UHGV virus genome: UHGV-1361621
Reading direction: 5' to 3' (one strand)
Origin: a virus
DNA length: 23,749 nucleotides
Of the stretch, positions 1 to 21,873 are shown piece by piece; position 1 is the stretch's first letter, and every line of letters begins with the position of its first letter. The notes under the pieces were generated by a model, which was given only the letters and a program-made list of their open reading frames with translations, had not been told where the DNA came from and ran no database searches. A program made the translations under genes and the position numbers.

Positions 1-261
1 AAAAATCCAAGTATTGTTATTGCAGAGCTTTTGCAAGGTAAGGCAGAGCTTGAGCTAATACAAGAAAAGAAATATCGTGTATACCACCAACAACCAACAC
101 ACGACACACGTTTATTCTCTTATCACTTTTTCGATAAAAATTATGAATTGAATGAAGATGATTTCTTTACTAGCGTTCCGAAACTCACACAAGAGCAAGT
201 GAATAATATTGTAGACATTGAAGGGAACTGGGTATGGTCATGGGCTCACGAGGTGGAATAA
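1..261 (+). CDS. 3' part of an early gene cut by the window edge (hypothetical protein); probably the continuation of the ORF that starts at 23591
   Basis: Frame is open from nt 1 to TAA at 259-261. The ORF open at the right edge (23591-23749, exactly 53 codons) is in the same phase, so joining the window ends gives one uninterrupted 139-aa ORF. Confidence 0.5.
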   Translation, partial: KNPSIVIAELLQGKAELELIQEKKYRVYHQQPTHDTRLFSYHFFDKNYELNEDDFFTSVPKLTQEQVNNIVDIEGNWVWSWAHEVE

Positions 262-262
262 G

Positions 263-685
263 ATGATTAAAGCGACATTTAAACTAACAAAAGAACAACT
301 CACAGCATTAAAAACATGTGCAGACAACGGCTCTCTATTCCAAGCATATGACCAATATTTGAAAGATGATAAAAAAGACCCTTGGTTAGTAAATAGCGCA
401 CTTGATAAATTTTGGGAAGCCAGTGCGGAAAGTTTATCTCAAATTTTGACTTGGTACTTGCGTGGGGAAGTTGAAATAATTGAACAAGATAATCAAAACT
501 TTGCAGTTATTTTAGACGGTGCTAACACAGCATATAATTACACTTTTATGAACCAAACAGGTGTTATCTTAAAAGCTGATTATATTGAAGAAGTAGAATT
601 TATGTCATGGGAGGCAGTACAAAACTTGCCCGATTGGACTAAACCACTTATCAAAACAAAAGAAGAATTACAAAAAGGAGAATAA
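263..685 (+). CDS. hypothetical early protein (140 aa)
   Basis: ATG at 263 preceded by GAGGTGG. The track's TTG at 218 would overlap the upstream gene. Tight spacing with neighbours. Confidence 0.6.
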   Translation: MIKATFKLTKEQLTALKTCADNGSLFQAYDQYLKDDKKDPWLVNSALDKFWEASAESLSQILTWYLRGEVEIIEQDNQNFAVILDGANTAYNYTFMNQTGVILKADYIEEVEFMSWEAVQNLPDWTKPLIKTKEELQKGE

Positions 686-688
686 AAT

Positions 689-1036
689 TTGATTATTGAA
701 ACTATCCAAATTAACGAAAAAAATACACGTGAAGTACAAACTAAAGACGGTGCAAAGCTAGTAAGCACAATCTTCTTGTATCCATTTGGCTATATTGGTA
801 ACAACTGGGTGCCTTCTTGCAGTACATGGGGCGATTATGTAACGGTTATCGTTGAGAGCGTCAAGAAAGAAGAAAAGGGCGACAAAACTTATTACAACAC
901 TAAGAGCGGGCGTGTGGTTCCATTGTTTGAGTTGAGCAAAGGAAACCAAGCGCAAGAGACTTCTTTTAATGACATGAACGGCTTATTTGGTGGAAGTGAG
1001 CCCTTAGAAGTTTCTGACAGTGATTTACCTTTCTAA
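689..1036 (+). CDS. ssb: single-stranded DNA-binding protein (phage SSB)
   Basis: TTG start 9 nt after AAAGGAG. 115 aa with an acidic C-terminal tail ending ...SDSDLPF, matching the D-x-P-F protein-interaction tail of bacterial and phage SSBs. It lies in a recombination module near the ERF gene. Confidence 0.6.
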   Translation: MIIETIQINEKNTREVQTKDGAKLVSTIFLYPFGYIGNNWVPSCSTWGDYVTVIVESVKKEEKGDKTYYNTKSGRVVPLFELSKGNQAQETSFNDMNGLFGGSEPLEVSDSDLPF

Positions 1037-1047
1037 GGCGGTGTTAA

Positions 1048-1281
1048 ATGGTATTTATCAACTTTGACAACCGTTTTAAGAATGGTTATGACTATGAAGA
1101 AGCCCTTGACATTGTGGATAAAATGATGTTAGAAGAGGGTGCAACACTTGAAGAGGTTTTACATTGGATTGACATCAATGTCCCGCTAATATTCTGTCAA
1201 GATAAAGAAAACTTGATTGAACTAGCTGAAATAAACGAATTTAAACAAACATATATCACAGAGATAAAGGAGATTTTATAA
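1048..1281 (+). CDS. hypothetical early protein (77 aa)
   Basis: ATG preceded by AAGGCGG. Packed in the operon. Confidence 0.55.
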   Translation: MVFINFDNRFKNGYDYEEALDIVDKMMLEEGATLEEVLHWIDINVPLIFCQDKENLIELAEINEFKQTYITEIKEIL

Positions 1282-1282
1282 A

Positions 1283-1789
1283 ATGGCACGCTATTCACAT
1301 TTGAATAATTTACACGCACTTGAATTTAAAACACTTAAAGGCATTCACGAGGGTTTGGGAATTAAACAAGGTCTTAAAAACTATGTTCGTAATACCAATA
1401 AGAAATATGGCAAGAACTATGCAGAAGATGAAGTTATTATGAATGAAGTTGCTGATATTATCATCTTGAACACACTCGGCAAGCTAAAACGACACAACGA
1501 ACAAGCGAAATACATTGATTTAATGGCTGAAAGTAAAGAAGATACTGCTTTGATTGAAAAAGCTACACAATATGCTGAATTGAGCAACTTAGCAGACGCA
1601 ATCATTAACCAAGCGAAAGTTATGACAAAACTTGATTTACTTGACACGATTGAGAATAGCAAAGTTATTGGGGAAATTATGTATCAAAAAGGTGTTCCTA
1701 ATGCAAAATATTTCAGTCCACAAGGGAAAATACAATGGTTTAAAGACAATATGGACTATCTTATTAACTCCTATGAGGTGCAAAAATGA
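1283..1789 (+). CDS. hypothetical early protein (168 aa)
   Basis: ATG 1283 preceded by AAAGGAG. Its stop overlaps the next start (ATGA at 1786-1789). Confidence 0.6.
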   Translation: MARYSHLNNLHALEFKTLKGIHEGLGIKQGLKNYVRNTNKKYGKNYAEDEVIMNEVADIIILNTLGKLKRHNEQAKYIDLMAESKEDTALIEKATQYAELSNLADAIINQAKVMTKLDLLDTIENSKVIGEIMYQKGVPNAKYFSPQGKIQWFKDNMDYLINSYEVQK

Positions 1790-2094
1790 GTACAAAAGAA
1801 GACATCAAACAATTCCTAGAGGATTTAGGCTTTACAGTATCGCTTGACTATGAACGTGAGCCAATGGGCACAATGTTCGCTGATATACATGAGCATATTC
1901 ACACAATAGACGGCAATTTGGGCACATATCAAGCCTTTAGAGCGCTAGAAATTGAGTTAATGGTAATTGTATCGGGAGAGAGTTCGGAAGCTCTTAGAAA
2001 GGCTGTAAATGGCTTGAAAGACGAATTCACAATATACCAAAACAATGCAACAGACAATACACTAAAGATTATCATGAGGGGAGCTTTTTATTAA
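1786..2094 (+). CDS. hypothetical early protein (102 aa)
   Basis: GAGGTG SD. ATGA overlap upstream and TAATG overlap downstream indicate translational coupling. Confidence 0.6.
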   Translation: MSTKEDIKQFLEDLGFTVSLDYEREPMGTMFADIHEHIHTIDGNLGTYQAFRALEIELMVIVSGESSEALRKAVNGLKDEFTIYQNNATDNTLKIIMRGAFY

Positions 2095-2378
2095 TGATTG
2101 AAGAAAAAACATTTAAGTATATCAAATTTGCAACTGGTTATAATAGTTTGAGCCTTGAGGACTTGACAGCATTTGCTGAAAGTGAAATAGAGGAGCTCAA
2201 TCAATACAATACCGACCTAATTTACACAGTGGAAGACATTAACGCAAACGTGATTTTACGTAACTACATCATTGAAGGCTTGAAATTGAGCTTGCAAACA
2301 CGTTGGGGCAATAACTTGGAGTATCACAAAGACAAACGCTTGTCATATCTTAATCGTCTAACTAACATGCAAGTGTAA
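2094..2378 (+). CDS. hypothetical early protein (94 aa)
   Basis: GAGGGGAG SD. Coupled TAATG start. Confidence 0.6.
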   Translation: MIEEKTFKYIKFATGYNSLSLEDLTAFAESEIEELNQYNTDLIYTVEDINANVILRNYIIEGLKLSLQTRWGNNLEYHKDKRLSYLNRLTNMQV

Positions 2379-2399
2379 TAAATTTTAATACTCTTGTAA

Positions 2400-2428
2400 T
2401 TGACATCTTTTAAAAAATAATCTATAAT
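2400..2428 (+). promoter_or_regulatory. consensus sigma-A promoter: TTGACA(2400-2405), 17 nt spacer, TATAAT(2423-2428), with an upstream CTCTTGTAATTGACA context
   Basis: Perfect -35 and -10 hexamers at optimal spacing. Followed by the AAAGAAAGAGGT SD and ATG at 2462. Confidence 0.75.
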
Positions 2429-2461
2429 AAATACATAAAATAAAGAAAGAGGTAAAACCTT

Positions 2462-2908
2462 ATGACTATCACAATCGAAAACATTCTTGACGCTGTTACA
2501 GAGCAAGCTAAAGCACATGATGAATTTATTGGCTTACTGCTTAAAAAGTACAACTTACCAGAAGACGGCACAGCAAAAACAAGCGAATATGATGAACCAA
2601 TGACAGATGTGCTTGTAAAATTGTCAGACGATATTGAGTTACGTTTTAACCACATTATGGCGAAATACAGAGGGGAAGAGCTTGATGAAAATGCTAAAAT
2701 TTGGCTTGAAGGTGTGGAAGAAATGCTTGAAGCACTTGAAGAGGCTCTTAAAGAGATTGACAATAAAGAAGAATATGAAAACGTGCCTTTTGATACTCAT
2801 GCTAATCGTGACGCAATGGAAGAAACTTACGTAAATGAGCATGAAGCATTTGAAGCAATGCACAAAGGTGCTAAAATGATTGCTATGTTTGCAATGTTGG
2901 GAGAATAG
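2462..2908 (+). CDS. strongly acidic hypothetical protein (148 aa)
   Basis: ATG after a strong SD. Composition is dominated by E and D (EELDENAKIWLEGVEEMLEALEEALKEIDNKEEYEN...). Confidence 0.65.
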   Translation: MTITIENILDAVTEQAKAHDEFIGLLLKKYNLPEDGTAKTSEYDEPMTDVLVKLSDDIELRFNHIMAKYRGEELDENAKIWLEGVEEMLEALEEALKEIDNKEEYENVPFDTHANRDAMEETYVNEHEAFEAMHKGAKMIAMFAMLGE

Positions 2909-2923
2909 AAAGAGGATAGAAAT

Positions 2924-3334
2924 ATGTTTACAAGCGAATTAAAGTTAATTACAGGTCTTATCAACGACCACAATGAAAAAGCAAACAAAGAGCTAGCAGA
3001 GGTATTGAAGGACACAGAACCTTTCACAGACCAGTTTTACATTAAAGCTTTACCAGTTGCAACGGAAGCCTATAAAGACCTCGCAGAGGTAGCAAACGGC
3101 ATTAGAAAAGCATTTGGATTGGTAGCACAGTTTAGACCCGAAAAGAAAGTAGCATTCGACCTAATTAATGAAGCTATTCATGCACACAGTGAGCTGTTAG
3201 AAAAAACAGATGTTAAAGAAGGCATGACAAAAGGCGCTACATATCATCAAATTGTTAAGCATTACAGCGATTTGATGTTTAGCATTGGAGATGTTGCAGA
3301 CGAATTAGAAGAAAAAATGGAGGAAATGTTATAA
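2924..3334 (+). CDS. hypothetical early protein (136 aa)
   Basis: GAAAGAGGA SD. TAATG coupling to the next ORF. Confidence 0.6.
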   Translation: MFTSELKLITGLINDHNEKANKELAEVLKDTEPFTDQFYIKALPVATEAYKDLAEVANGIRKAFGLVAQFRPEKKVAFDLINEAIHAHSELLEKTDVKEGMTKGATYHQIVKHYSDLMFSIGDVADELEEKMEEML

Positions 3335-3594
3335 TGTTAGATTTTCATAAAGTAGTTGATTTTAATAAGTTGCCCCTTGTCCCCGCTACGGCTTTGAATA
3401 TGACGCAAGTTATTTGGGAGGATATGAGCATTAAAGACCGTCAAGAAGGTATCACAGCACTACAAAACGATATTGACAAAATGACTACTAATGACTATAT
3501 CATTCACAACGTGGAAAACTTGCAAGAGCACATGAATGAAATGAGAGAAATGCAAAAAGCAGCCGACCACATGGAAGAACATTTAAATGACTAG
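3334..3594 (+). CDS. hypothetical early protein (86 aa); last gene of the rightward operon
   Basis: TGGAGGAAA SD. Ends at the convergent non-coding region. Confidence 0.55.
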   Translation: MLDFHKVVDFNKLPLVPATALNMTQVIWEDMSIKDRQEGITALQNDIDKMTTNDYIIHNVENLQEHMNEMREMQKAADHMEEHLND

Positions 3595-3968
3595 CTAGGA
3601 AGTTGTTTATAGAAAGATTTTAATAAATAGTCTTATGAGCTTATATATGAGCTTGTAGGGCTGTTTTTGTTTGTTCTTGATATGTTATAGGAGGTGTGCT
3701 GTAAAATGCTTATATGGGCTTGTATGGAGCTTGTAGAGATATGCTTAGGTGTGTCAAATTGAATTGGAAAAATCACTTTTCTACTTTTTGAGGAGTTAGG
3801 CTTGATAGAAGACCCACCCCGTTATATACATACCCCCTTTAAGTTCCCTTTGAAATTCACGCAAAAAATAAAAAAATAGAAACAACCACAATTTTCAAAA
3901 TAAACTATGATTATCTCTATCTATATCTATACTATACTACTATACTACACTATATACTACTACTCTAC
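3595..3968. repeat. repeat-rich, C-tract-containing non-coding region where early and late transcription converge; candidate cos/packaging (or terminator) region
   Basis: Three copies of GNGCTTGTAKRG (3649-3660, 3715-3726, 3728-3739) are flanked by ATGCTTA repeats at 3706 and 3741, with TGAGCTT doubled at 3637 and 3648. C tracts CCCACCCC at 3813-3820 and CCCCC at 3833-3837. A-rich run 3862-3900. Degenerate tandem TATACTAC octamers at 3928-3968. It holds no convincing ORF. Confidence 0.5.
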
Positions 3969-4241
3969 TCAATCGGTAAGGTCTGTAACATTCTGTTTCA
4001 TTCCATTCAAGAACTTAAACAATGAAGCACACACAAGACCAATGTATACAGTACCAATGAGAGATAGTAACTCTGTGCTTATCATACCTTTGAACACTGT
4101 GTTTCCTGCTACATATACTACCAATACAATAGCTTCAATGCTTAGCCTTTTCTTTACGCTCGGTGTTAAAGTACCTGTGTCTATAAACTCAATTGCCAAT
4201 GCCAATGCTTGCATAAATAAAACTAGTGCTATTTCTTTCAT
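3969..4241 (-). CDS. holin-like membrane protein (90 aa, three predicted TM helices, charged C-terminus); last late gene
   Basis: Hydrophobic segments IALVLFMQALALAIEFI, IEAIVLVVYVAGNTVF and LLSLIGTVYIGLVCASLF, with a polar/charged C-terminal tail. ATG 4241 follows the AAGGGG SD, which overlaps the upstream stop. Confidence 0.55.
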   Translation of the reverse strand: MKEIALVLFMQALALAIEFIDTGTLTPSVKKRLSIEAIVLVVYVAGNTVFKGMISTELLSLIGTVYIGLVCASLFKFLNGMKQNVTDLTD

Positions 4242-4253
4242 TCTATTCCCCTT

Positions 4254-5699
4254 TTAATTTTCTACTTTGTTTTCCATTGTGTCGCCTGTATAGTAGTACA
4301 TCATATTGCCCCAAACATTTGTGTATCCTGTTAAATCCCAAGTATCTGTTTGTACACTTCCCATAAAAGTATAAGGAACTAAGTTATTATTTGGGTTAAC
4401 ATGGAAGTTTGTTACTATTCCACCCTTACCACTTGTCTTTAGGAAATAACTGCTATTACTTGTGCTTCCTACACTATCATCAATAATATTACTATGTGCA
4501 ATTGTATTATAAATGCTCACGCTAGTGTCTGCAACTGCGTCTGCGTTCTTTTCGTAATACTTCACTTCCACATTATTGATTTGCTTAAACACATCTATTT
4601 CAGCTCTGATTTTAAACATTCCTGTGCTCTCGTTATAATCAAGTACTTGCAGTCCTTTCAACTGATTGACCTTATAAGCACATGCAAAGTCATATTCCTT
4701 ACTGTAATAGAAACCTAATGCAGGTTGTATAAAAGTAAGACCTTGTAGCCCTCTGTCATACTCATATTCAAACACTTCTTGAGGTGTCATTGTGAAATCT
4801 GGGTTAAGTGTATTCTCTCCTTCATAAAGCATAGGCTCTAAGAAAGATACTTGTGTTCCTTTTTTCACTCGAATGCGGTAGAAATGATATGTTGCTTTGT
4901 CTAATTCTGCTTGTGGTAGTGTTGTGAATTGCACTTCACATTCATGCCATATAGGACTTCTTTTATCTATCACATCTTGACCTATAATATCTTGCCAACC
5001 CACATCACAAATAGTCTTCTGCACATCTGTGACATTAGGATACCAATATTCAATAGGGTGACCATTTATAATTATCGGTTTAGTAATATCAACATTTTTG
5101 TTCCAAGGAGAACCGATATGTGTATTAAATTGCTGTCCTACTTGGTCACGGTCACACCTTAATTTAAATCTAAGTGTATAAGTTGTTGAACCTTTCCAAA
5201 AGAAGCCCATACCATTTATGTTCTCTGTTGATGACGCTGTTCCATGTTTTTGGTTTCTCGTCCAATCATATGCGTCTTTTTCTGCTGTTGTAGGTATAGA
5301 AAATTGCGTAATCATGTTAGAGCTATTGCTTGCTAACATATTGTGGGTATAAGAATAGATATACGTATTTTCTGATAGTGTACGCTTCTCTGCAAAAGTG
5401 TCTAGCCAATCATTTTCTTTTATGACATCATCTGTACCGCTATATAGATTTGACATGCGCCACAAATTAGGAGTTTGATATTGTGTAGCCTTGATAGGGT
5501 GCAATATACTATACTCACGTTGTAGAGCGTAATACAGAGCCTTAGGACACCAAAAATCAATTTCCCTTATACCAATACCGAAAAGGTCTAAACCTTCCTC
5601 AAAATGCACATCATAGCCGTCTAGTGAGCTTTCAAACTCTCTTTCGTTTCCTGCCTGTGTCAAATTCTCTTTATCTTGATAACCACCTAAATATCCCAT
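4254..5699 (-). CDS. tail-tip / adsorption (receptor-binding-like) structural protein, 481 aa
   Basis: Large late-operon ORF rich in Asn, Thr, Tyr and Trp, typical of tail fibre/RBP proteins. Position is distal to the tape measure protein. Confidence 0.4.
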   Translation of the reverse strand: MGYLGGYQDKENLTQAGNEREFESSLDGYDVHFEEGLDLFGIGIREIDFWCPKALYYALQREYSILHPIKATQYQTPNLWRMSNLYSGTDDVIKENDWLDTFAEKRTLSENTYIYSYTHNMLASNSSNMITQFSIPTTAEKDAYDWTRNQKHGTASSTENINGMGFFWKGSTTYTLRFKLRCDRDQVGQQFNTHIGSPWNKNVDITKPIIINGHPIEYWYPNVTDVQKTICDVGWQDIIGQDVIDKRSPIWHECEVQFTTLPQAELDKATYHFYRIRVKKGTQVSFLEPMLYEGENTLNPDFTMTPQEVFEYEYDRGLQGLTFIQPALGFYYSKEYDFACAYKVNQLKGLQVLDYNESTGMFKIRAEIDVFKQINNVEVKYYEKNADAVADTSVSIYNTIAHSNIIDDSVGSTSNSSYFLKTSGKGGIVTNFHVNPNNNLVPYTFMGSVQTDTWDLTGYTNVWGNMMYYYTGDTMENKVEN

Positions 5700-17084: not shown

Positions 17085-17747
17085 TCAATTCTTTTCTTTT
17101 GGTTTAGGGTAAATAGCTCTAAACTCTTTATCATACATTTTGGTGTATGGGAATTTGATTTTATTGTGTCCATCTTGACCTAAATAAAAATTAAGTTCAC
17201 GTTCTGTCTTAATCCAACGTGCGTTGAATCCGTCACAGATGTAATGTGCGTTGTTGTTCAAATTATAAATAACATACATATCTAAATTTACCTCTTCCTT
17301 TTCTTGTGGTTTTGGTTTTTCTGTTTGTTTATGTTTTACAGCTCGGACACCGTCCACAACTTCCGACCAACCTAAGTAGCGCATTTGCCAACCCATAAAC
17401 CTTATAAGCTCTGCACCACTGCCATATGGCTTATTACGTCTGCCACTAGCATATTCACTATCGTAAATCTTAGTCGTCTTACCGTCTGAATAGTACCAAG
17501 CAACATGCCCATAACCTGCGTATCGTCCATTTTCAATAGTGTAATAAACAGGTACCCATACATTGTTAGGCGGTTCTTCGTTGGGGTGTGCTGTCTTGTT
17601 AGCTACAGCATTGTTCCAAGACTGTTGCGCACTTCCTGCACGGTGTGAGTCTGGTGCTTTTACTGCGTCATCTACATACTGCAAACACCAACCACTAGCT
17701 CCCGATACATTCACGTTAGGTGTTGCGACCTGAACAAATGGTATCAT
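17085..17747 (-). CDS. CHAP-domain peptidoglycan hydrolase (endolysin), 220 aa
   Basis: Catalytic Cys in SGWCLQYVDDA and catalytic His in GYGHVAWYYSDG, as in CHAP amidase/peptidase domains. A C-terminal roughly 90 aa could be a binding domain. AAGGAG SD. Confidence 0.7.
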   Translation of the reverse strand: MIPFVQVATPNVNVSGASGWCLQYVDDAVKAPDSHRAGSAQQSWNNAVANKTAHPNEEPPNNVWVPVYYTIENGRYAGYGHVAWYYSDGKTTKIYDSEYASGRRNKPYGSGAELIRFMGWQMRYLGWSEVVDGVRAVKHKQTEKPKPQEKEEVNLDMYVIYNLNNNAHYICDGFNARWIKTERELNFYLGQDGHNKIKFPYTKMYDKEFRAIYPKPKEKN

Positions 17748-17750
17748 TAA

Positions 17751-18260
17751 TCACTCCTTTTCATATATTGTTTTATAGTCAACGGCTTCACAGTACAATA
17801 ATTGTGCTAGTGCGTCCGCTTTATTATCGTCTTTAGTTGGTTCTCCCATAACACGCTCGTAAAGCTCACAGCTTGCGTCCTTACGCTCTTTTCGTTTACC
17901 TTTGATAAGATGGTAGGCACACCACTTAGAGTTCCTTATATTGTAAATATAGCCCTTTGTGAGTGCGTGCATTTTACCCAAGGCATAACCATTCCATTGA
18001 GCTAATTCTATTGAGCCTGCGCTATTGCCTGCCAATATAGGACGCTCTATACAGATGTCATAATCTTGCAAGCCGTTTTCTAAAATAATATCCTCTAGCT
18101 TTTCTACAATAATCAAAGTACGGCTTTTCATGGTAGACCCTTTTGTATAAGGCTTAATAGAACCCACAATAAGTTTTCCCTCTTCATCTCGGAAAGCATA
18201 CCCTGTACCCTCTTTTGATTTAGAGCCTGTACTAAAATCAATACTTAATATTTTTTTCAA
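17751..18260 (-). CDS. RuvC-like Holliday junction resolvase (about 169 aa)
   Basis: Begins MKKILSIDFSTGSK (RuvC-type start with a catalytic Asp) and has the D-ADALAQLL C-terminal motif. The real start is probably TTG 18260, 8 nt after AGAGGAG, overlapping the stop of the small upstream ORF (TTGA). The track's 18296 TTG lacks an SD. Confidence 0.65.
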   Translation of the reverse strand: MKKILSIDFSTGSKSKEGTGYAFRDEEGKLIVGSIKPYTKGSTMKSRTLIIVEKLEDIILENGLQDYDICIERPILAGNSAGSIELAQWNGYALGKMHALTKGYIYNIRNSKWCAYHLIKGKRKERKDASCELYERVMGEPTKDDNKADALAQLLYCEAVDYKTIYEKE

Positions 18261-18400
18261 ATTGGTAGCTCCTCTGTATATATAACAGCATAGCAATCAG
18301 ATTTATTGTATTCAATCTTCTTTATAAGGTTCTCCCTTTTTAAGAAACTAATTGCCTGCTCAAAGTCCTCAATAGTGGGACACATGTATTTACTTTTCAT
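18257..18400 (-). CDS. first late gene, 47-aa protein (MKSKYMCPTIEDFEQAISFLKRENLIKKIEYNKSDCYAVIYTEELPI)
   Basis: ATG 18400 sits 9 nt after GGAGG (18410-18414). Its stop TGA overlaps the RuvC TTG start. Not in the ORF track because it is under 60 aa. Confidence 0.5.
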   Translation of the reverse strand: MKSKYMCPTIEDFEQAISFLKRENLIKKIEYNKSDCYAVIYTEELPI

Positions 18401-18430
18401 AAGTGATTACCTCCCTCAATCACAATAACT

Positions 18431-18436
18431 ATTATA
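18431..18436 (-). promoter_or_regulatory. candidate late promoter -10 (TATAAT on the minus strand) with no recognisable -35; possibly activator-dependent
   Basis: Perfect -10 hexamer about 18 nt upstream of the SD of the first late gene. The sequence at -35 (CTGTCA) is poor. It is face-to-face with early promoter P1. Confidence 0.35.
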
Positions 18437-18451
18437 CACTGTATAAAAAGC

Positions 18452-18480
18452 TTGACAGAATTTTAAATCTTTGCTATAAT
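18452..18480 (+). promoter_or_regulatory. early promoter P1: TTGACA(18452-18457), 17 nt, TATAAT(18475-18480)
   Basis: Perfect consensus hexamers at optimal spacing. Confidence 0.7.
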
Positions 18481-18510
18481 GGATTTGGTGCTCACTTTTG
18501 CTAGTTATAG

Positions 18511-18538
18511 TATATATGTTACACTTTTGCACATTAAA
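18511..18538 (+). promoter_or_regulatory. conserved 28-bp element copy 1 (TATATATGTTACACTTTTGCACATTAAA); candidate operator or ori element
   Basis: Repeated with one mismatch at 19068-19095. A partial CACTTTTGC repeat lies at 18493-18501. Confidence 0.4.
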
Positions 18539-18577
18539 CTTGTAATGAATTAGAAACAGTATTGTAACCATCTTGTG

Positions 18578-18606
18578 ATTGACATAGGGTGGAAAAGTGA
18601 TATAAT
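18578..18606 (+). promoter_or_regulatory. early promoter P2: TTGACA(18578-18583), 17 nt, extended -10 TGaTATAAT(18598-18606); upstream context CTTGTGATTGACA
   Basis: Perfect consensus with a TG extension. The AAAAAGGAGGT SD follows at 18620-18630. Confidence 0.75.
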
Positions 18607-18770
18607 AAAGACATAAAGAAAAAAGGAGGTAGTCAAACATAGCAAGACCAAAACAAAAAGAATGTACTAATTGTCATGGTTTAAATCCTAAGTGTCACTA
18701 TCTCGAAACTGGTAGAAAGTGCAGGGTTAAACAAAAGACATTAGACAAACGAAACATAAGAGAGAGGCTT

Positions 18771-19055
18771 ATGGAAATATATTTTGATAGATACTTGACA
18801 TTCTTAGAAATATATAATATAACGGAAAATGAAGTATCTTTTTTCAAGTGGCTAAGATTGCAAAGCCCAAATGTTGCAATGAGTTATTACAGGCAAAGAC
18901 AAACCAAAATAAAAAGAATGGGGGTAAATTTGTTTAGCGAGAAAGAAAAGAAAGAGTTACAAGATATTGACGCAATGGTAAAAGACGCAAAGGAGGTAAA
19001 AGAATTATACGAACAATCAGAGCGAGAACGAAAACTAAAAAATAAAACTAGATAA
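18771..19055 (+). CDS. first early gene, basic/Lys-rich hypothetical protein (94 aa from ATG; possibly 138 aa if initiated at ATA 18639)
   Basis: ATG 18771 has a poor SD (GAGAGG with 3-nt spacing). The frame is open back to 18633, and the strong SD at 18620-18630 sits 8 nt before an in-frame ATA. Confidence 0.6.
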   Translation: MEIYFDRYLTFLEIYNITENEVSFFKWLRLQSPNVAMSYYRQRQTKIKRMGVNLFSEKEKKELQDIDAMVKDAKEVKELYEQSERERKLKNKTR

Positions 19056-19067
19056 TATAACGTGTGT

Positions 19068-19095
19068 TATATATGTTACATTTTTGCACATTAAA
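19068..19095 (+). promoter_or_regulatory. conserved 28-bp element copy 2 (TATATATGTTACATTTTTGCACATTAAA)
   Basis: 27 of 28 positions identical to 18511-18538. It lies between the stop at 19055 and the SD of the first membrane-peptide gene. Confidence 0.4.
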
Positions 19096-19112
19096 AATTG
19101 GAGGTAGAAAAA

Positions 19113-19253
19113 ATGAAGTATGTTTATTTAGTTTGTGCCTTTTTGGGGTTCTTATTATCAATAATCAACTTTAATGGGCTTTTCCTTGTGTGGTTCGCAA
19201 TAGGGATTTTGAGCTTGTTAGTGGCTTTTGTAGAATGGTTAGGGGAGTATTAA
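19113..19253 (+). CDS. small hydrophobic membrane peptide (46 aa, MKYVYLVCAFLGFLLSIINFNGLFLVWFAIGILSLLVAFVEWLGEY)
   Basis: GGAGGT SD 7 nt upstream of ATG. Two predicted TM segments. Confidence 0.5.
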   Translation: MKYVYLVCAFLGFLLSIINFNGLFLVWFAIGILSLLVAFVEWLGEY

Positions 19254-19363
19254 TGTTAGATGTTATAAACATAATATGCGGGCTTGTAGCTTGTATCATT
19301 GTTGCTAGTGGTTTGAGTGACTTAATAGCGAATGCTTTAGGAGGTAAGAAAAATGATAGATGA
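19253..19363 (+). CDS. small hydrophobic peptide (36 aa, MLDVINIICGLVACIIVASGLSDLIANALGGKKNDR)
   Basis: TAATG overlap with the preceding peptide gene. GGGGAG SD. Confidence 0.4.
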   Translation: MLDVINIICGLVACIIVASGLSDLIANALGGKKNDR

Positions 19364-19520
19364 AGATAGTATTATGATGTTTTGTTGTTTAGTTGGTGTT
19401 ATAACAGCAGTGTTCTCATTGGCTAGCTTTATAGACAATAACATAGCACAGGGCACTACATTGCTCTTTATAAGCTTTATAGCATATATTGCGGGGTGGG
19501 CATTAGATGAAGAAGAATGA
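19353..19520 (+). CDS. small hydrophobic membrane peptide with an acidic C-terminus (55 aa, ...AYIAGWALDEEE)
   Basis: AGGAGG SD 8 nt before ATG. Overlaps its neighbours out of frame. Confidence 0.5.
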   Translation: MIDEDSIMMFCCLVGVITAVFSLASFIDNNIAQGTTLLFISFIAYIAGWALDEEE

Positions 19521-19776
19521 TAGCTTAGAAGCACATGCTATAAAATTATTTGTTGAGTTATACGGTTGGGTTTATACAGTTGGCGAAAGAGTGCTTGAAG
19601 ATGATATAATAAGTCAGGACATTGTTATGAGGTGGATAGGACTAACAACCAAATTAGAAAGGAAGGCGAAACAGCTCTATAATGCTGTACCATGTGACAC
19701 AACTAAAAGAGGTTGGGTAAGAGCGTTAGAGCTGAAAACACAATTTAATGACAGACAATACCCTAAGGCTAGATGA
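19507..19776 (+). CDS. hypothetical early protein (89 aa)
   Basis: ATG within the end of the preceding peptide gene, in the usual coupled arrangement. Confidence 0.5.
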   Translation: MKKNDSLEAHAIKLFVELYGWVYTVGERVLEDDIISQDIVMRWIGLTTKLERKAKQLYNAVPCDTTKRGWVRALELKTQFNDRQYPKAR

Positions 19777-20668
19777 TTTCGGATATACTGCGGTAGATAA
19801 TGACCCATTCAAAAGGTTAATTACCGCACAAGACCTAAAAGAAAAAGAAGAGTTTCAAGAAGCCAATTCTTGGTACATTAAAGATATACTCCCTAAAGGT
19901 GTAGGGGGTCTTGTTGTTGCACCACAGAAAAGCTTTAAGAGTTCAACGACTTTGTTTATGGCTCACGCTATTGCAACTGGCACACCATTTGGAGAACATG
20001 AAACGACAAAAGCCAACGTTCTTATTATTGATAATGAAGACACAGAATTTACTTTACATCAACGATTAAACGGCTATGACGGCTCACTAGCGGGCTTATG
20101 GTTCTTGACTGGTGGTATATTCAAGATGGATAATAAAGACAATCTGAACAAGCTATACAGCGTCATAAAGGAGTTAGATATTAAAGTAGTTATCTTAGAC
20201 TGTTTGAAAGATATGCTCACTAGTCCCGACAGCTTGAACGATATGCACAAGATGAATGAAATTTTAATGCGTATCACAAAGCTAAAGTTATTGCTCGGGG
20301 ATGTTACTTTCTTAGTAGTGGCTCACGCTAGGAAGGATTGTTTTGACAGGTCTTTAGAAGAACCATTATTCAGAACACGCTCTACCCATGCTCTTGGCTC
20401 TTCTGCTATTGGTGCATGGCATGAAGTATGTTTCACTCTAAGCCCTAAGATAAGCAAAAAGACAGGAAACAAGTATTCTATTATTGAAGTGGAAGCACGT
20501 AACTTTAACTATGATAAGCCAATCTGCGTGGGATATGTTGACGATAGATTTACAATCATAGACCCTACTGTAAAAGTGGAAACAGGCGAACAATTGGAAG
20601 GAGGAGAGGCTACCGAATTTTTAGACACCCTAAAACTAGCGGGAAAAGTTACAGAAATAAATGATTGA
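19748..20668 (+). CDS. RecA-fold P-loop ATPase of the AAA_25/DnaB-C-like type (replication or recombination protein), 306 aa
   Basis: P-loop-like VAPQKSFKSSTTLFMAHAIATG (a degenerate GxxxxGKS/T), Walker B VVILDCL, and the FLVVAHARKD motif that resembles the hhhhHH.RK motif of AAA_25 proteins. Confidence 0.55.
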   Translation: MTDNTLRLDDFGYTAVDNDPFKRLITAQDLKEKEEFQEANSWYIKDILPKGVGGLVVAPQKSFKSSTTLFMAHAIATGTPFGEHETTKANVLIIDNEDTEFTLHQRLNGYDGSLAGLWFLTGGIFKMDNKDNLNKLYSVIKELDIKVVILDCLKDMLTSPDSLNDMHKMNEILMRITKLKLLLGDVTFLVVAHARKDCFDRSLEEPLFRTRSTHALGSSAIGAWHEVCFTLSPKISKKTGNKYSIIEVEARNFNYDKPICVGYVDDRFTIIDPTVKVETGEQLEGGEATEFLDTLKLAGKVTEIND

Positions 20669-20754
20669 ACATAATTAGAAAGTAGGTTAGACCCCATTTA
20701 TTTTAATTCCTTGTATTGTAACTAACCCGTAATAATAGTTTAAAGCTCTTGTAA

Positions 20755-20783
20755 TTGACAGGGGCTTTTTTTATTGTTATACT
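20755..20783 (+). promoter_or_regulatory. early promoter P3: TTGACA(20755-20760), 17 nt, TATACT(20778-20783); upstream CTCTTGTAATTGACA as at 2391-2405
   Basis: Near-consensus promoter, followed by the conserved ATGTAAGATAAATAAAG element at 20788-20804. Confidence 0.65.
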
Positions 20784-20816
20784 ATGTATGTAAGATAAAT
20801 AAAGGAGATATAAAAA

Positions 20817-20963
20817 ATGGTAGCAAACGGCAAAATGGATTGCGTAAAAGCATTTGAAGAATTAATCTTGGAAGCAAAGAATGAAGGTGAAGCTTCTAAT
20901 GAAAAAATCAAAGATTATGAGGTAATCTTGGATAATCTTAAAAAGTTGAAGGAGTTGGCATAA
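20817..20963 (+). CDS. small protein (48 aa, MVANGKMDCVKAFEELILEAKNEGEASNEKIKDYEVILDNLKKLKELA)
   Basis: AAAGGAG SD 8 nt before ATG, downstream of P3. Below the ORF-track size cutoff. Confidence 0.5.
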   Translation: MVANGKMDCVKAFEELILEAKNEGEASNEKIKDYEVILDNLKKLKELA

Positions 20964-21004
20964 GGTTTGTAACAAATTGTAAATAAACTTTAAACAGTTA
21001 GTAA

Positions 21005-21033
21005 TTGACATTCGCAACAAAGTTAGTTATAAT
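21005..21033 (+). promoter_or_regulatory. early promoter P4: TTGACA(21005-21010), 17 nt, TATAAT(21028-21033), followed by the same ATGTAAGATAAATAAAG element (21038-21054) and a leader hairpin GATAAG-CGGAA-CTTATC (21062-21078)
   Basis: Perfect consensus promoter. The downstream 17-mer is identical to the P3 element and sits at the same 4-nt offset from the -10. Confidence 0.7.
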
Positions 21034-21121
21034 GAATATGTAAGATAAATAAAGCACACGAGATAAGCGGAACTTATCACACTTGACCTAACATTAAATA
21101 AACAAATTGGAGGTAGGAAAA

Positions 21122-21241
21122 ATGTTGACACTTATTGTACTTGCAGTTATTGCATTCTTTGTATTTAGAAAATTTATCACTGGCTTGTATAATGCTAGTG
21201 TTGCAGTAACTAAACATTTTGAGGAGGAAGAATATGAGTAA
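21122..21241 (+). CDS. small membrane peptide with an acidic tail (39 aa, MLTLIVLAVIAFFVFRKFITGLYNASVAVTKHFEEEEYE)
   Basis: Its initiation region ATTGGAGGTAGGAAAAATG is nearly identical to that of the 19113 peptide gene. One predicted TM helix. Confidence 0.5.
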   Translation: MLTLIVLAVIAFFVFRKFITGLYNASVAVTKHFEEEEYE

Positions 21242-21443
21242 AGAAAAAACCACCTATGCACTTTATAGAGTGGTAGAAGGAGGGGATGAACAAATAATCA
21301 CAGTTGGCACAGTTGACGAACTTGACTATGTGACTAACTTTGACCGTAAAAAGTTTTATCAAAAAGTAAAAGATGACAAACGCAAACCCAAAAAGAGAAA
21401 CCCAAACACAGGAACACTCAAACTTTATAAAGTGGAGGATTGA
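21234..21443 (+). CDS. basic hypothetical protein (69 aa, MSKEKTTYALYRVVEGG...)
   Basis: ATG 21234 is 6 nt after GAGGAGG. The track's TTG at 21219 lies inside the SD. Confidence 0.55.
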   Translation: MSKEKTTYALYRVVEGGDEQIITVGTVDELDYVTNFDRKKFYQKVKDDKRKPKKRNPNTGTLKLYKVED

Positions 21444-21560
21444 ATGTGTAAAAAACTAATGTCTATTACTATTTCATATCGTGATTTAGATGATTTAATC
21501 AGACAAATTAACAACCTTAAAAATAACCCGCTTATCGGACAACACACAAAAATTTATTTA
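21444..21560 (+). CDS. small hypothetical protein (38 aa)
   Basis: TGAATG coupling to the upstream gene. Below the ORF-track cutoff. Confidence 0.35.
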
Positions 21561-21576
21561 GAAAGTGATTTTTATT

Positions 21577-21873
21577 ATGGTTAGACAATTTAGAACAGTT
21601 GAAGAAGCAAATGAATTTATTGAAGAGCAAGACAAAATAATTAAAGAGCTTAACCAAGACATTGCGGAATTAAATGCAGAGCTTGAAGAGTTAGAGGAAC
21701 AATATTTTGAACAAGGAGAATATGTTGAAGAACTCGAATATGATTTATCAGAGGTAGAAAATAGCTATGATGAATTGAGTGAATTGCATGATGACGCACT
21801 TGAAGAAATTGCACGCTTAGACAAAGTTTGCGAAACTTATGAGAAAGAAATGGAGGCGTTGGAGAATAGCTAA
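21577..21873 (+). CDS. very acidic coiled-coil protein (98 aa; about 40% Asp+Glu); candidate DNA mimic or regulatory/anti-defence protein
   Basis: ATG 21577 (MVRQFRTVEE...). Extreme acidity with heptad-like EELEE repeats. Confidence 0.55.
   Translation: MVRQFRTVEEANEFIEEQDKIIKELNQDIAELNAELEELEEQYFEQGEYVEELEYDLSEVENSYDELSELHDDALEEIARLDKVCETYEKEMEALENS

Follow-up and report, generated by a model that had tools for sequence, protein, structure and literature searches.

The sequence analyzed here is the virus genome UHGV-1361621, a stretch of 23,749 nucleotides (nt) that is called the window below and that represents a complete or near-complete genome (23.7 kb) of a virulent c2-like (Ceduovirus-like) Lactococcus phage. 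The analysis concerns four very small genes on its plus strand, three of which, A, B, and C, overlap one another at 19113-19520, while the fourth, D, is found further downstream (Table 1). The peptides that they encode, of 36-55 amino acids (aa), consist nearly entirely of predicted transmembrane (TM) helix, with extramembrane tails of at most 24 residues. Very probably, A-D are real early genes for small membrane peptides.

An earlier note, made from the letters of the window, had described A, B, and C as three overlapping open reading frames (ORFs) of 46, 36, and 55 aa, each with its own Shine-Dalgarno (SD) site, and coordinates, SD sites, and overlaps proved to be as it described them. All four genes start with ATG, 5-7 nt downstream of a GGAGG-type SD site. 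The ATG of B sits on the TAA of A (TAATG, an overlap of 1 nt), B and C overlap by 11 nt, and C overlaps by 14 nt the gene of an 89-aa protein that follows it. A and C have a common reading frame, whereas B and the 89-aa gene each use a different one. The 20-nt translation-initiation region AATTGGAGGTAG(A/G)AAAAATG is nearly identical at A (19096-19115) and D (21105-21124), where its only two copies in the window are located, and good translation is predicted for all four peptides. The earlier note had also proposed one or two TM helices per peptide. A simple hydropathy and insertion-energy calculation, without a position term, agrees with this, giving two segments for A (residues 4-18 and 23-40), one for B (7-21), two for C (7-21 and 37-51), and one for D (1-15). 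AlphaFold2 models both A and C as helical hairpins, with helices at residues 2-18 and 24-44 in A (predicted local distance difference test score, pLDDT, of 81) and at residues 4-33 and 36-53 in C (pLDDT 80).

Adenine- and thymine-rich (AT-rich) DNA readily gives hydrophobic ORFs. Hence, one explanation to be weighed is that A-D are chance ORFs in an AT-rich leader, or that the region carries instead an opposite-strand gene, a 65-aa ORF at 19337-19534 on the minus strand. To the numbers of such ORFs, the following applies. Both strands of the whole window were scanned for ORFs of 20-100 aa having an SD site and a strongly hydrophobic 15-residue segment, and exactly A, B, C, and D were returned. 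In 100 dinucleotide-preserving shuffles of the window, by contrast, the mean was 0.81 such ORFs and the maximum 3, against the 4 observed, and the SD site is correctly spaced at each of the four genes.

The history of the frames in related genomes also bears on this point. The relatives compared were five IMG/VR contigs (23.6-24.5 kb) and six distinct Logan/ENA assemblies, with the handles L004-L007, L013-L017, L019, and L024, together with the isolate LG75P1. A wider search of IMG/VR and metagenomes, via an alignment of the 89-aa neighbor, added only one close relative, Uwajimavirus-like contigs, and a short contig, L027. All relatives compared have intact A and C, all but one (L017) have D, and most of them have B (it is missing from L017 and LG75P1). 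Pairwise ratios of nonsynonymous to synonymous divergence (dN/dS, Nei-Gojobori) are 0.09-0.26 for A, 0.13-0.26 for B, 0.06-0.40 for C, and 0.07-0.35 for D, that is, in the same range as for the adjacent 89-aa gene (0.09-0.27). The purifying signal persists between the window and LG75P1, where nucleotide identity in A, C, and D is down to 53-68%. In a six-frame comparison, the annotated frames have the best ratio of synonymous to nonsynonymous changes and zero new stop codons. These patterns indicate that the frames of A-D are under purifying selection. Conservation of the frames in related phages was one of the points on which the earlier note had said that it could be refuted; the frames are kept in 11-13 related genomes, with dN/dS of 0.06-0.40.

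The only close contender in the six-frame comparison is, as expected, the phase-matched antisense frame. Its synonymous pattern is similar, and in C and the 89-aa gene it too is free of new stops; the antisense ORF is open in close relatives. However, this ORF has no SD or promoter support, runs against both the direction of the operon and the guanine-cytosine (GC) skew, and has lost its stop codon in L014. Together with the survival of the sense frames through 30-47% nucleotide divergence (A, C, and D in LG75P1, and a second allele of B described below) at dN/dS below 0.4, this makes chance ORFs or an antisense gene hardly credible.

One relative departs from the pattern at the end of C. In L005 (IMGVR_UViG_3300045988_054383), a 1-nt insertion near the 3' end of the gene, at about window position 19490, gives a 52-aa product with the tail ...ISGVGIR. 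This insertion, which would also upset the context in which the 89-aa gene starts, may represent either an error of assembly or a genuine frameshift variant.

Across the relatives, A and C appear as the fixed core of the group and B and D behave as accessory genes exchanged or lost by recombination, because of the presence and absence of genes described above, of the alleles of B, and of the missing D. Indeed, in L014, L016, and L019, B is replaced by a 37-aa allele, B2, of the form MLEFINAVCGIIAMIFVVSGFYD...GG(R/K)KNDR. Nucleotide identity between B2 and the allele of the window, B1, is 59-67%, inside flanks that are 84-98% identical; the two alleles are separated by a dS of ~1.4, with a dN/dS of 0.22. 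In L017 the deletion of B is exact, and C begins there with MLDDD, i.e., with the Met-Leu of B joined to C, which is consistent with recombination across the ATG(T/A)TAGATG common to both start sites. Finally, A is more diverged than its flanks in L013, with a dS of 1.1 vs. 0.07-0.09 for B and C.

The charged ends of the peptides have to be read with the overlaps in mind. The earlier note had compared the end of C, DEEE, with that of D, EEEEYE. Both tails are as it gave them, but their resemblance is partly an artefact, because the tail of D is dictated by the ribosome-binding site of the next gene: its EEEE is encoded by the GAGGAGG of that site. Outside the window the tail of D is not conserved, being DGGVEK in LG75P1, where the site is GGAGGT, and EDGERE in L006. 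In the same way, the invariant GG(K/R)KNDR at the end of B is the coding image of the ribosome-binding site and start of C (GGAGGTAAGAAAAATGATAGATGA). The ends of C are different in this respect. Its N-terminus is acidic throughout (MIDEDS, MIDDSE, or MLDDDS; MIDKDS in the relative P0012), and so is its C-terminus (DEEE, DDD, EGEE, EGE, or DEEK), even where the overlapping sequence differs. The peptide of the window and the LG75P1-type homologues have zero lysine or arginine, with net charges of -8 and -7, and among the other relatives only those of P0012 and L016 have a single lysine. Since C is without basic residues, the positive-inside rule gives no orientation for it.

The location of the genes in the genome is that of an early operon, as had been proposed. 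The window is divided into late genes on the minus strand, from ~18296 down to 4254, and early genes on the plus strand, starting at ~18640, reaching the window end, and continuing at 1-4257; the GC skew matches this split. The late genes include a Holliday-junction resolvase homologue, the endolysin and, at the far end, the holin. Four perfect or near-perfect sigma-70-type promoters point toward the early genes. With a divergent intergenic region between early and late genes and multiple early promoters (EP1-EP5 in c2), the window has the layout annotated for phage c2. The first early unit reads, in order, promoter 2, a Zn-ribbon-like ORF, A, B, C, the 89-aa gene, a gene for an ATPase of the AAA_25 type, and a terminator-like hairpin, whereas D is the first gene after promoter 4, in a later early unit. 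Promoter 2 is likely the start of the transcript carrying A-B-C, and no strong terminator was found between it and the ATPase gene, the sole terminator-like site (19276-19296, inside B) being weak. In LG75P1 the A homologue directly follows a promoter TTGACA-17-TGTATAAT, whereas in the window the Zn-ribbon ORF stands before A. Early expression of A-B-C is suggested by the consensus promoters and by collinearity with genes e1-e5 of c2 and its annotated early promoters.

Table 1. Genes, promoters, and other features of the window that are discussed in the text.
Feature	Position	Strand	Description
Peptide A	19113-19253	+	46 aa; SD GGAGGT at 19100-19105, 7 nt 5' of ATG; predicted two-helix membrane hairpin
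Peptide B	19253-19363	+	36 aa; SD GGGGAG at 19242-19247; predicted single-pass; variable cassette, allele B1 in window
Peptide C	19353-19520	+	55 aa; SD AGGAGGT at 19339-19345; predicted two-helix hairpin, acidic ends, no Lys/Arg
Peptide D	21122-21241	+	39 aa; SD GGAGGT at 21109-21114; predicted N-terminal TM helix, then RK and short tail; accessory
Early promoter 1	18452-18480	+	TTGACA-17-TATAAT with TG extension; 12/12 consensus; matches c2 EP1 by position
Early promoter 2	18579-18606	+	TTGACA-16-TATAAT with TG extension; 12/12 consensus
Zn-ribbon-like gene	18639-19055	+	138 aa, CxxC...C...C; apparent ATA start; AAGGAGG 8 nt upstream; first gene of unit
89-aa early protein	19507-19776	+	phrog_1405, E=4e-15; overlaps C and ATPase gene; homologues LG75P1 CDS 00027, PLG-II ORF54
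AAA_25 ATPase	19748-20668	+	306 aa; PF13481, E=6e-22; phrog_1284, E=7e-101; replication module; homologue of c2 e5, P008 orf47
Terminator-like hairpin	20742-20768	+	11-pair stem, then T run; closes first early unit; overlaps -35 of next promoter
Early promoter 3	20755-20783	+	Perfect or near-perfect sigma-70-type
Early promoter 4	21005-21033	+	12/12 consensus; drives unit starting with D
Holin	3969-4241	-	phrog_9407, E=5e-35; late operon
Endolysin	17085-17747	-	Late operon

The leader regions of these units carry repeats. A 28-nt direct repeat, TATATATGTTACA(C/T)TTTTGCACATTAAA, is present at 18511-18538, just 3' of early promoter 1, and at 19068-19095, abutting the SD site of A; none is expected by chance, and both copies are kept in several relatives. 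This repeat could be an operator or an RNA-processing site. Promoters 3 and 4 belong to a repeated unit of ~250 nt (20729-20804 and 20979-21054), with an upstream element, the -35 and -10 boxes, and a 29-nt leader (GTTATAnT...GTAAGATAAATAAAG) present in both copies, which suggests the duplication of a promoter cassette.

Database searches found few relatives of the four peptides. By megablast, the window itself has patchy matches of 70-81% identity to Lactococcus phages LG75P1 and LG75P3 only, phages of L. petauri with a genome of 23.6 kb, and weaker matches to L. lactis ceduoviruses, in structural genes. With A-D as queries, profile searches of Pfam, NCBIfam, and PADLOC gave no match, PHROGs gave weak matches only, and sequence searches of the PDB gave no relative for any of the four; Foldseek found no match to the model of C in BFVD. 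A tblastn search with the concatenated peptides against 50,697 phage records returned LG75P1 and LG75P3 only. In a word-indexed protein search, A and C matched only close relatives, at 78-98% identity, and an exhaustive HMMER search with the C profile against 1.84 billion representatives (of 50%-identity clusters) found only its own cluster and an LG75P1-type cluster. Since no robust match was obtained in curated libraries, in the PDB, in BFVD, or in the 1.84-billion-representative search (C profile), A, B, C, and D are, by these comparisons, clade-restricted orphans.

A few candidates were set aside. The family phrog_21538 ("membrane protein", moron/host takeover) matched B1 of the window at an expectation value (E) of 7.9e-4 and the L005 allele at 0.04; this match, not reproduced by the B2 alleles, is probably compositional. 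Two further matches to the C profile, in long repetitive proteins, were treated as spurious. Paralogy of A and C is unsupported, with shuffle z-scores of 2-3.4 but nothing found by hhalign.

The searches and the genome layout also bear on a function in lysis timing (holin, antiholin, or pinholin-like), which the earlier note had considered in its holin/antiholin form, or on type I toxin-like depolarizing peptides. Such functions would fit peptides this small, with their one or two TM helices and, in B and D, a charged tail, and A has a very weak match to the holin family phrog_1129 (E=0.76). However, A-D are in early units, on the strand opposite to the lysis genes and distant from them, and the late operon has a bona fide holin and an endolysin of its own (Table 1). 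No holin or toxin family of Pfam and no family of NCBIfam was matched, and a search of Rfam with 18200-21600 gave nothing at E<=1, antisense RNAs included; promoter-like sites on the antisense strand are weak (9/12 matches). The charged tails of B and D are imposed by the ribosome-binding site and start of the next gene, which overlap them. All this makes a lysis or toxin function very unlikely.

Genes in the same position as A-D are known in other phages. In c2, the early genes are, in order, e1 (46 aa, two hydrophobic helices), e3 (35 aa, one helix), e4, and the ATPase gene e5. In a genome of the same type, e1 and e3 thus occupy the same slot as A and B, that of the first small early genes upstream of an e5-type AAA_25 ATPase. 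Like A, e1 (phrog_11709) has 46 aa, two TM segments, and the motif L-(F/Y)-x-V-W-F at the start of helix 2; A fits the e1 family both in size and topology (46-48 aa, two hydrophobic helices) and in position, as the leading small early gene upstream of the ATPase. Like B, e3 is single-pass and is present or absent among relatives: among ceduoviruses, it is found in c2, D4412, and CHPC122 and is absent from bIBBp6/4 and L008. In contrast, neither C nor the 89-aa gene has a counterpart in c2, where e4 is found instead.

Whether A and e1 are related by descent is another matter. Neither A nor its LG75P1 homologue matched phrog_11709 at E<=1, while c2 e1 itself matched it at 8.6e-31. Local alignment of A and e1 by hhalign gave a probability of 30%, off-register. 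A global profile-profile score of 13.6 compares with 6.0+-3.2 in column-permuted controls, 5% of which reach 13.6; shuffle z-scores are 1.9-3.6 and identity is at best ~25%. Sequence homology between A and e1 is marginal and not established, and the correspondence is positional. Pairwise comparison of B with c2 e3 showed no similarity.

True homologues are found in LG75P1 (OP172812), where WAX16710, WAX16709, and WAX16704 correspond to A (51% identity), C (~60%), and D (~60%), respectively, in the same order and context. LG75P1 differs from the window in having no B, an A homologue right after the early promoter, and a D homologue without the acidic tail. In more distant phages, only the type of gene recurs. 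In the Skunavirus P008, orf48 (53 aa; phrog_9199) is a small hydrophobic hairpin gene directly upstream of the homologous ATPase gene and is preceded by the Cys-rich orf49, and in the Uwajimavirus PLG-II, ORF55 (58 aa) stands directly before homologues of the 89-aa gene and of the ATPase. Neither A nor C has detectable similarity to P008 orf48 or PLG-II ORF55, the shuffle z-scores being at most 0.9. An order in which a Cys-rich or Zn-ribbon ORF is followed by a small TM gene and an e5-type ATPase gene recurs in P008 (L009, 2013-2445), in PLG-II (L003, 914-1300 and 2566-2742), and in the clade of the window. L027, a contig of 1493 nt from ERZ1023658, encodes two small peptides at 840-1084, upstream of the gene for a homologue of the 89-aa protein: one, of 29 aa, is single-pass and ends in GGKKK, and the other, of 52 aa, has two helices. 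It represents a distinct lineage, this homologue being only 54% identical and its small peptides being unrelated in sequence to A or C.

A-B-C-D is therefore an instance of a known feature of c2-like phages, represented by the long-annotated hypothetical genes e1-e3, and not a new kind of element. The view that such genes would be missed by standard annotation did not hold: the GenBank record of LG75P1 lists the homologues of A, C, and D as coding sequences, the RefSeq record of c2 lists e1-e3, and gene calls on public Logan/JGI assemblies include 46-, 36/37-, 55-, and 39-aa genes. In the literature, no functional data were found on c2 e1-e3 or on the LG75P1 genes.

As to function, superinfection exclusion or inhibition of host membrane proteins, both raised by the earlier note, are plausible for A-D by analogy with known systems. 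T4 Imm is a two-TM early protein of a virulent phage. Like T4 Imm, HK97 gp15, and lactococcal Sie2009, A-D are small membrane proteins without enzymatic domains; the analogy is one of proposed mode of action, and Sie2009 and gp15 differ from A-D in being prophage-encoded and larger. In the mechanism that we propose, the peptides would be made within minutes of DNA entry and would insert in the host cytoplasmic membrane. Since they have no soluble domain, they would act via helix-helix contacts, by binding either a host membrane component or the membrane itself. Their role would be an immediate-early interaction with the host, most probably closing the membrane route of DNA entry to later phages, as T4 Imm or HK97 gp15 do. 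Such a block would suit this clade because its relatives, the c2-type phages, reportedly require a host membrane protein for DNA ejection (Monteville et al. 1994, cited in PMC7150918). Within the group, a role in allele-specific conflict would fall to B and perhaps to D. The turnover of B alleles fits a conflict gene, and the signature includes two old alleles of B, its exact deletion, the presence or absence of D, the local divergence of A, and the occurrence of small TM genes without detectable similarity in the same slot of c2, P008, PLG-II, and L027. Exclusion or host takeover is nevertheless put forward tentatively, as a possible mechanism of A-D.

Several observations weigh against exclusion or takeover. 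In Pfam, NCBIfam, PADLOC, PHROGs, the PDB, and BFVD, the peptides show no similarity to a known exclusion family or to any other characterized family. A housekeeping role would account at least equally well for the strict conservation of A and C and for their tight coupling to replication genes. The dN/dS between B1 and B2 corresponds to purifying, not positive, selection. Finally, gene overlaps are ordinary in phage operons and are uninformative on function.

The coupling to replication genes leads to a different explanation, in which A and/or C would organize replication at the membrane by tethering or nucleating the Zn-ribbon protein, the 89-aa protein, and the AAA_25 ATPase, as phi29 p16.7 and p1 do. 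These phi29 proteins are early membrane proteins encoded beside replication genes, and A-D have replication-gene neighbors as well. A small two-TM gene is present directly upstream of an e5-type ATPase gene in four or five lineages (the clade of the window, c2, P008, PLG-II, and L027), often preceded by a Zn-ribbon ORF; the 89-aa gene overlaps with C at one end and with the ATPase gene at the other; no relative compared lacks A or C; and the conserved acidic termini of C could contact basic partners. However, phi29 p16.7, of ~130 aa, has a soluble DNA-binding domain, whereas A-D, nearly all TM helix, have no soluble domain for binding DNA or protein. The peptides also diverge far faster than the ATPase, since identity is at most ~25% between A and e1 but 57% between the ATPase of the window and c2 e5 (with the "DNA polymerase subunit/AAA ATPase" of 936-type phages, it is 40-45%). 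Moreover, overlap of the kind seen here is generic in phage operons, and c2-like phages are not known to replicate their DNA attached to the membrane. A replication organizer, the main alternative to exclusion or takeover, is unlikely. A broader and rather improbable speculation is that the recurrent small TM genes upstream of e5-type ATPases (those of the window clade, Ceduovirus e1/e3, Skunavirus orf48, Uwajimavirus ORF55, and L027) would be one ancient, fast-diverging component of a conserved early module made up of Zn-ribbon protein, membrane hairpin, and ATPase. Through this module, phage replication would be tied at its start to the host membrane or the site of DNA entry, and C would be an unusual membrane-insertion substrate or a partner-docking element.

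The variability of B and D, which is cited above for exclusion or takeover, can also be read as counter-defence. According to this explanation, the peptides would neutralize host defence proteins associated with the membrane, of the abortive-infection (Abi) or another type, or the sensing of envelope stress, for example by CesSR. Anti-defence loci typically show immediate-early timing, allelic turnover as in B, and a presence that varies between genomes, as for B and D. Both infection by c2 and the overproduction of membrane proteins switch on the CesSR envelope-stress regulon in L. lactis IL1403 (PMC7476776), and overexpression of cesSR slightly lowers the efficiency of plating of c2 (PMC9894900). 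Against counter-defence, neither PADLOC nor another library gave a match for A-D. Furthermore, in a report on 13 lactococcal defence systems (PMC12184496), c2 escape mutants are reported to be mutated in other genes; the PARIS escape mutations given there near "c2 orf1/ORF2" follow a different gene numbering and are assumed to lie outside e1-e3. Counter-defence is on balance distinctly unlikely. The same induction of CesSR is also background to the exclusion or takeover proposed above: it is compatible with early phage membrane peptides being its trigger, a link that is speculation.

The interest of these genes is both practical and general. In dairy fermentation, phages of the c2-like and 936-like types are industrially the most troublesome, and relatives of theirs attack the fish pathogens L. 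garvieae and L. petauri. What these phages express first are tiny membrane peptides, uncharacterized since the sequencing of c2. The comparisons presented here show selection on such peptides, their recurrence at one genomic slot in several genera and, in B, a recombining allelic cassette among them. A-D are hence a concrete and cheap set of candidates for studies of superinfection exclusion, host takeover, and induction of envelope stress. The advance is incremental, the homologues being already annotated as hypothetical proteins and the mechanism being only proposed; its most interesting details are the polymorphism of the B cassette, the acidic hairpin C without basic residues, and the reappearance of small TM genes at the same slot in different genera of lactococcal phages.

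Some minor observations concern other early genes of the window. The Zn-ribbon gene was listed from the ATG at 18771 (94 aa), and its open frame reaches 44 codons further upstream, to the ATA at 18639. The ATA, the SD site, and the open frame of this N-terminal extension are kept in 10 related genomes, where gene callers gave 86-92 aa, and the Zn-ribbon motif of the 138-aa protein matches the N-terminus of PLG-II ORF63. An ATA start is also annotated in RefSeq for the lysin gene l3 of c2. Where the early and late operons converge, a 116-aa plus-strand ORF (3907-4257) is almost wholly antisense to the holin gene; having no PHROG match, it is probably spurious. Finally, a 48-aa non-membrane early protein, encoded by one copy in the window (20817-20963), has tandem paralogues of 49 and 51 aa in LG75P1 (L001, 3938-4087 and 4090-4245).

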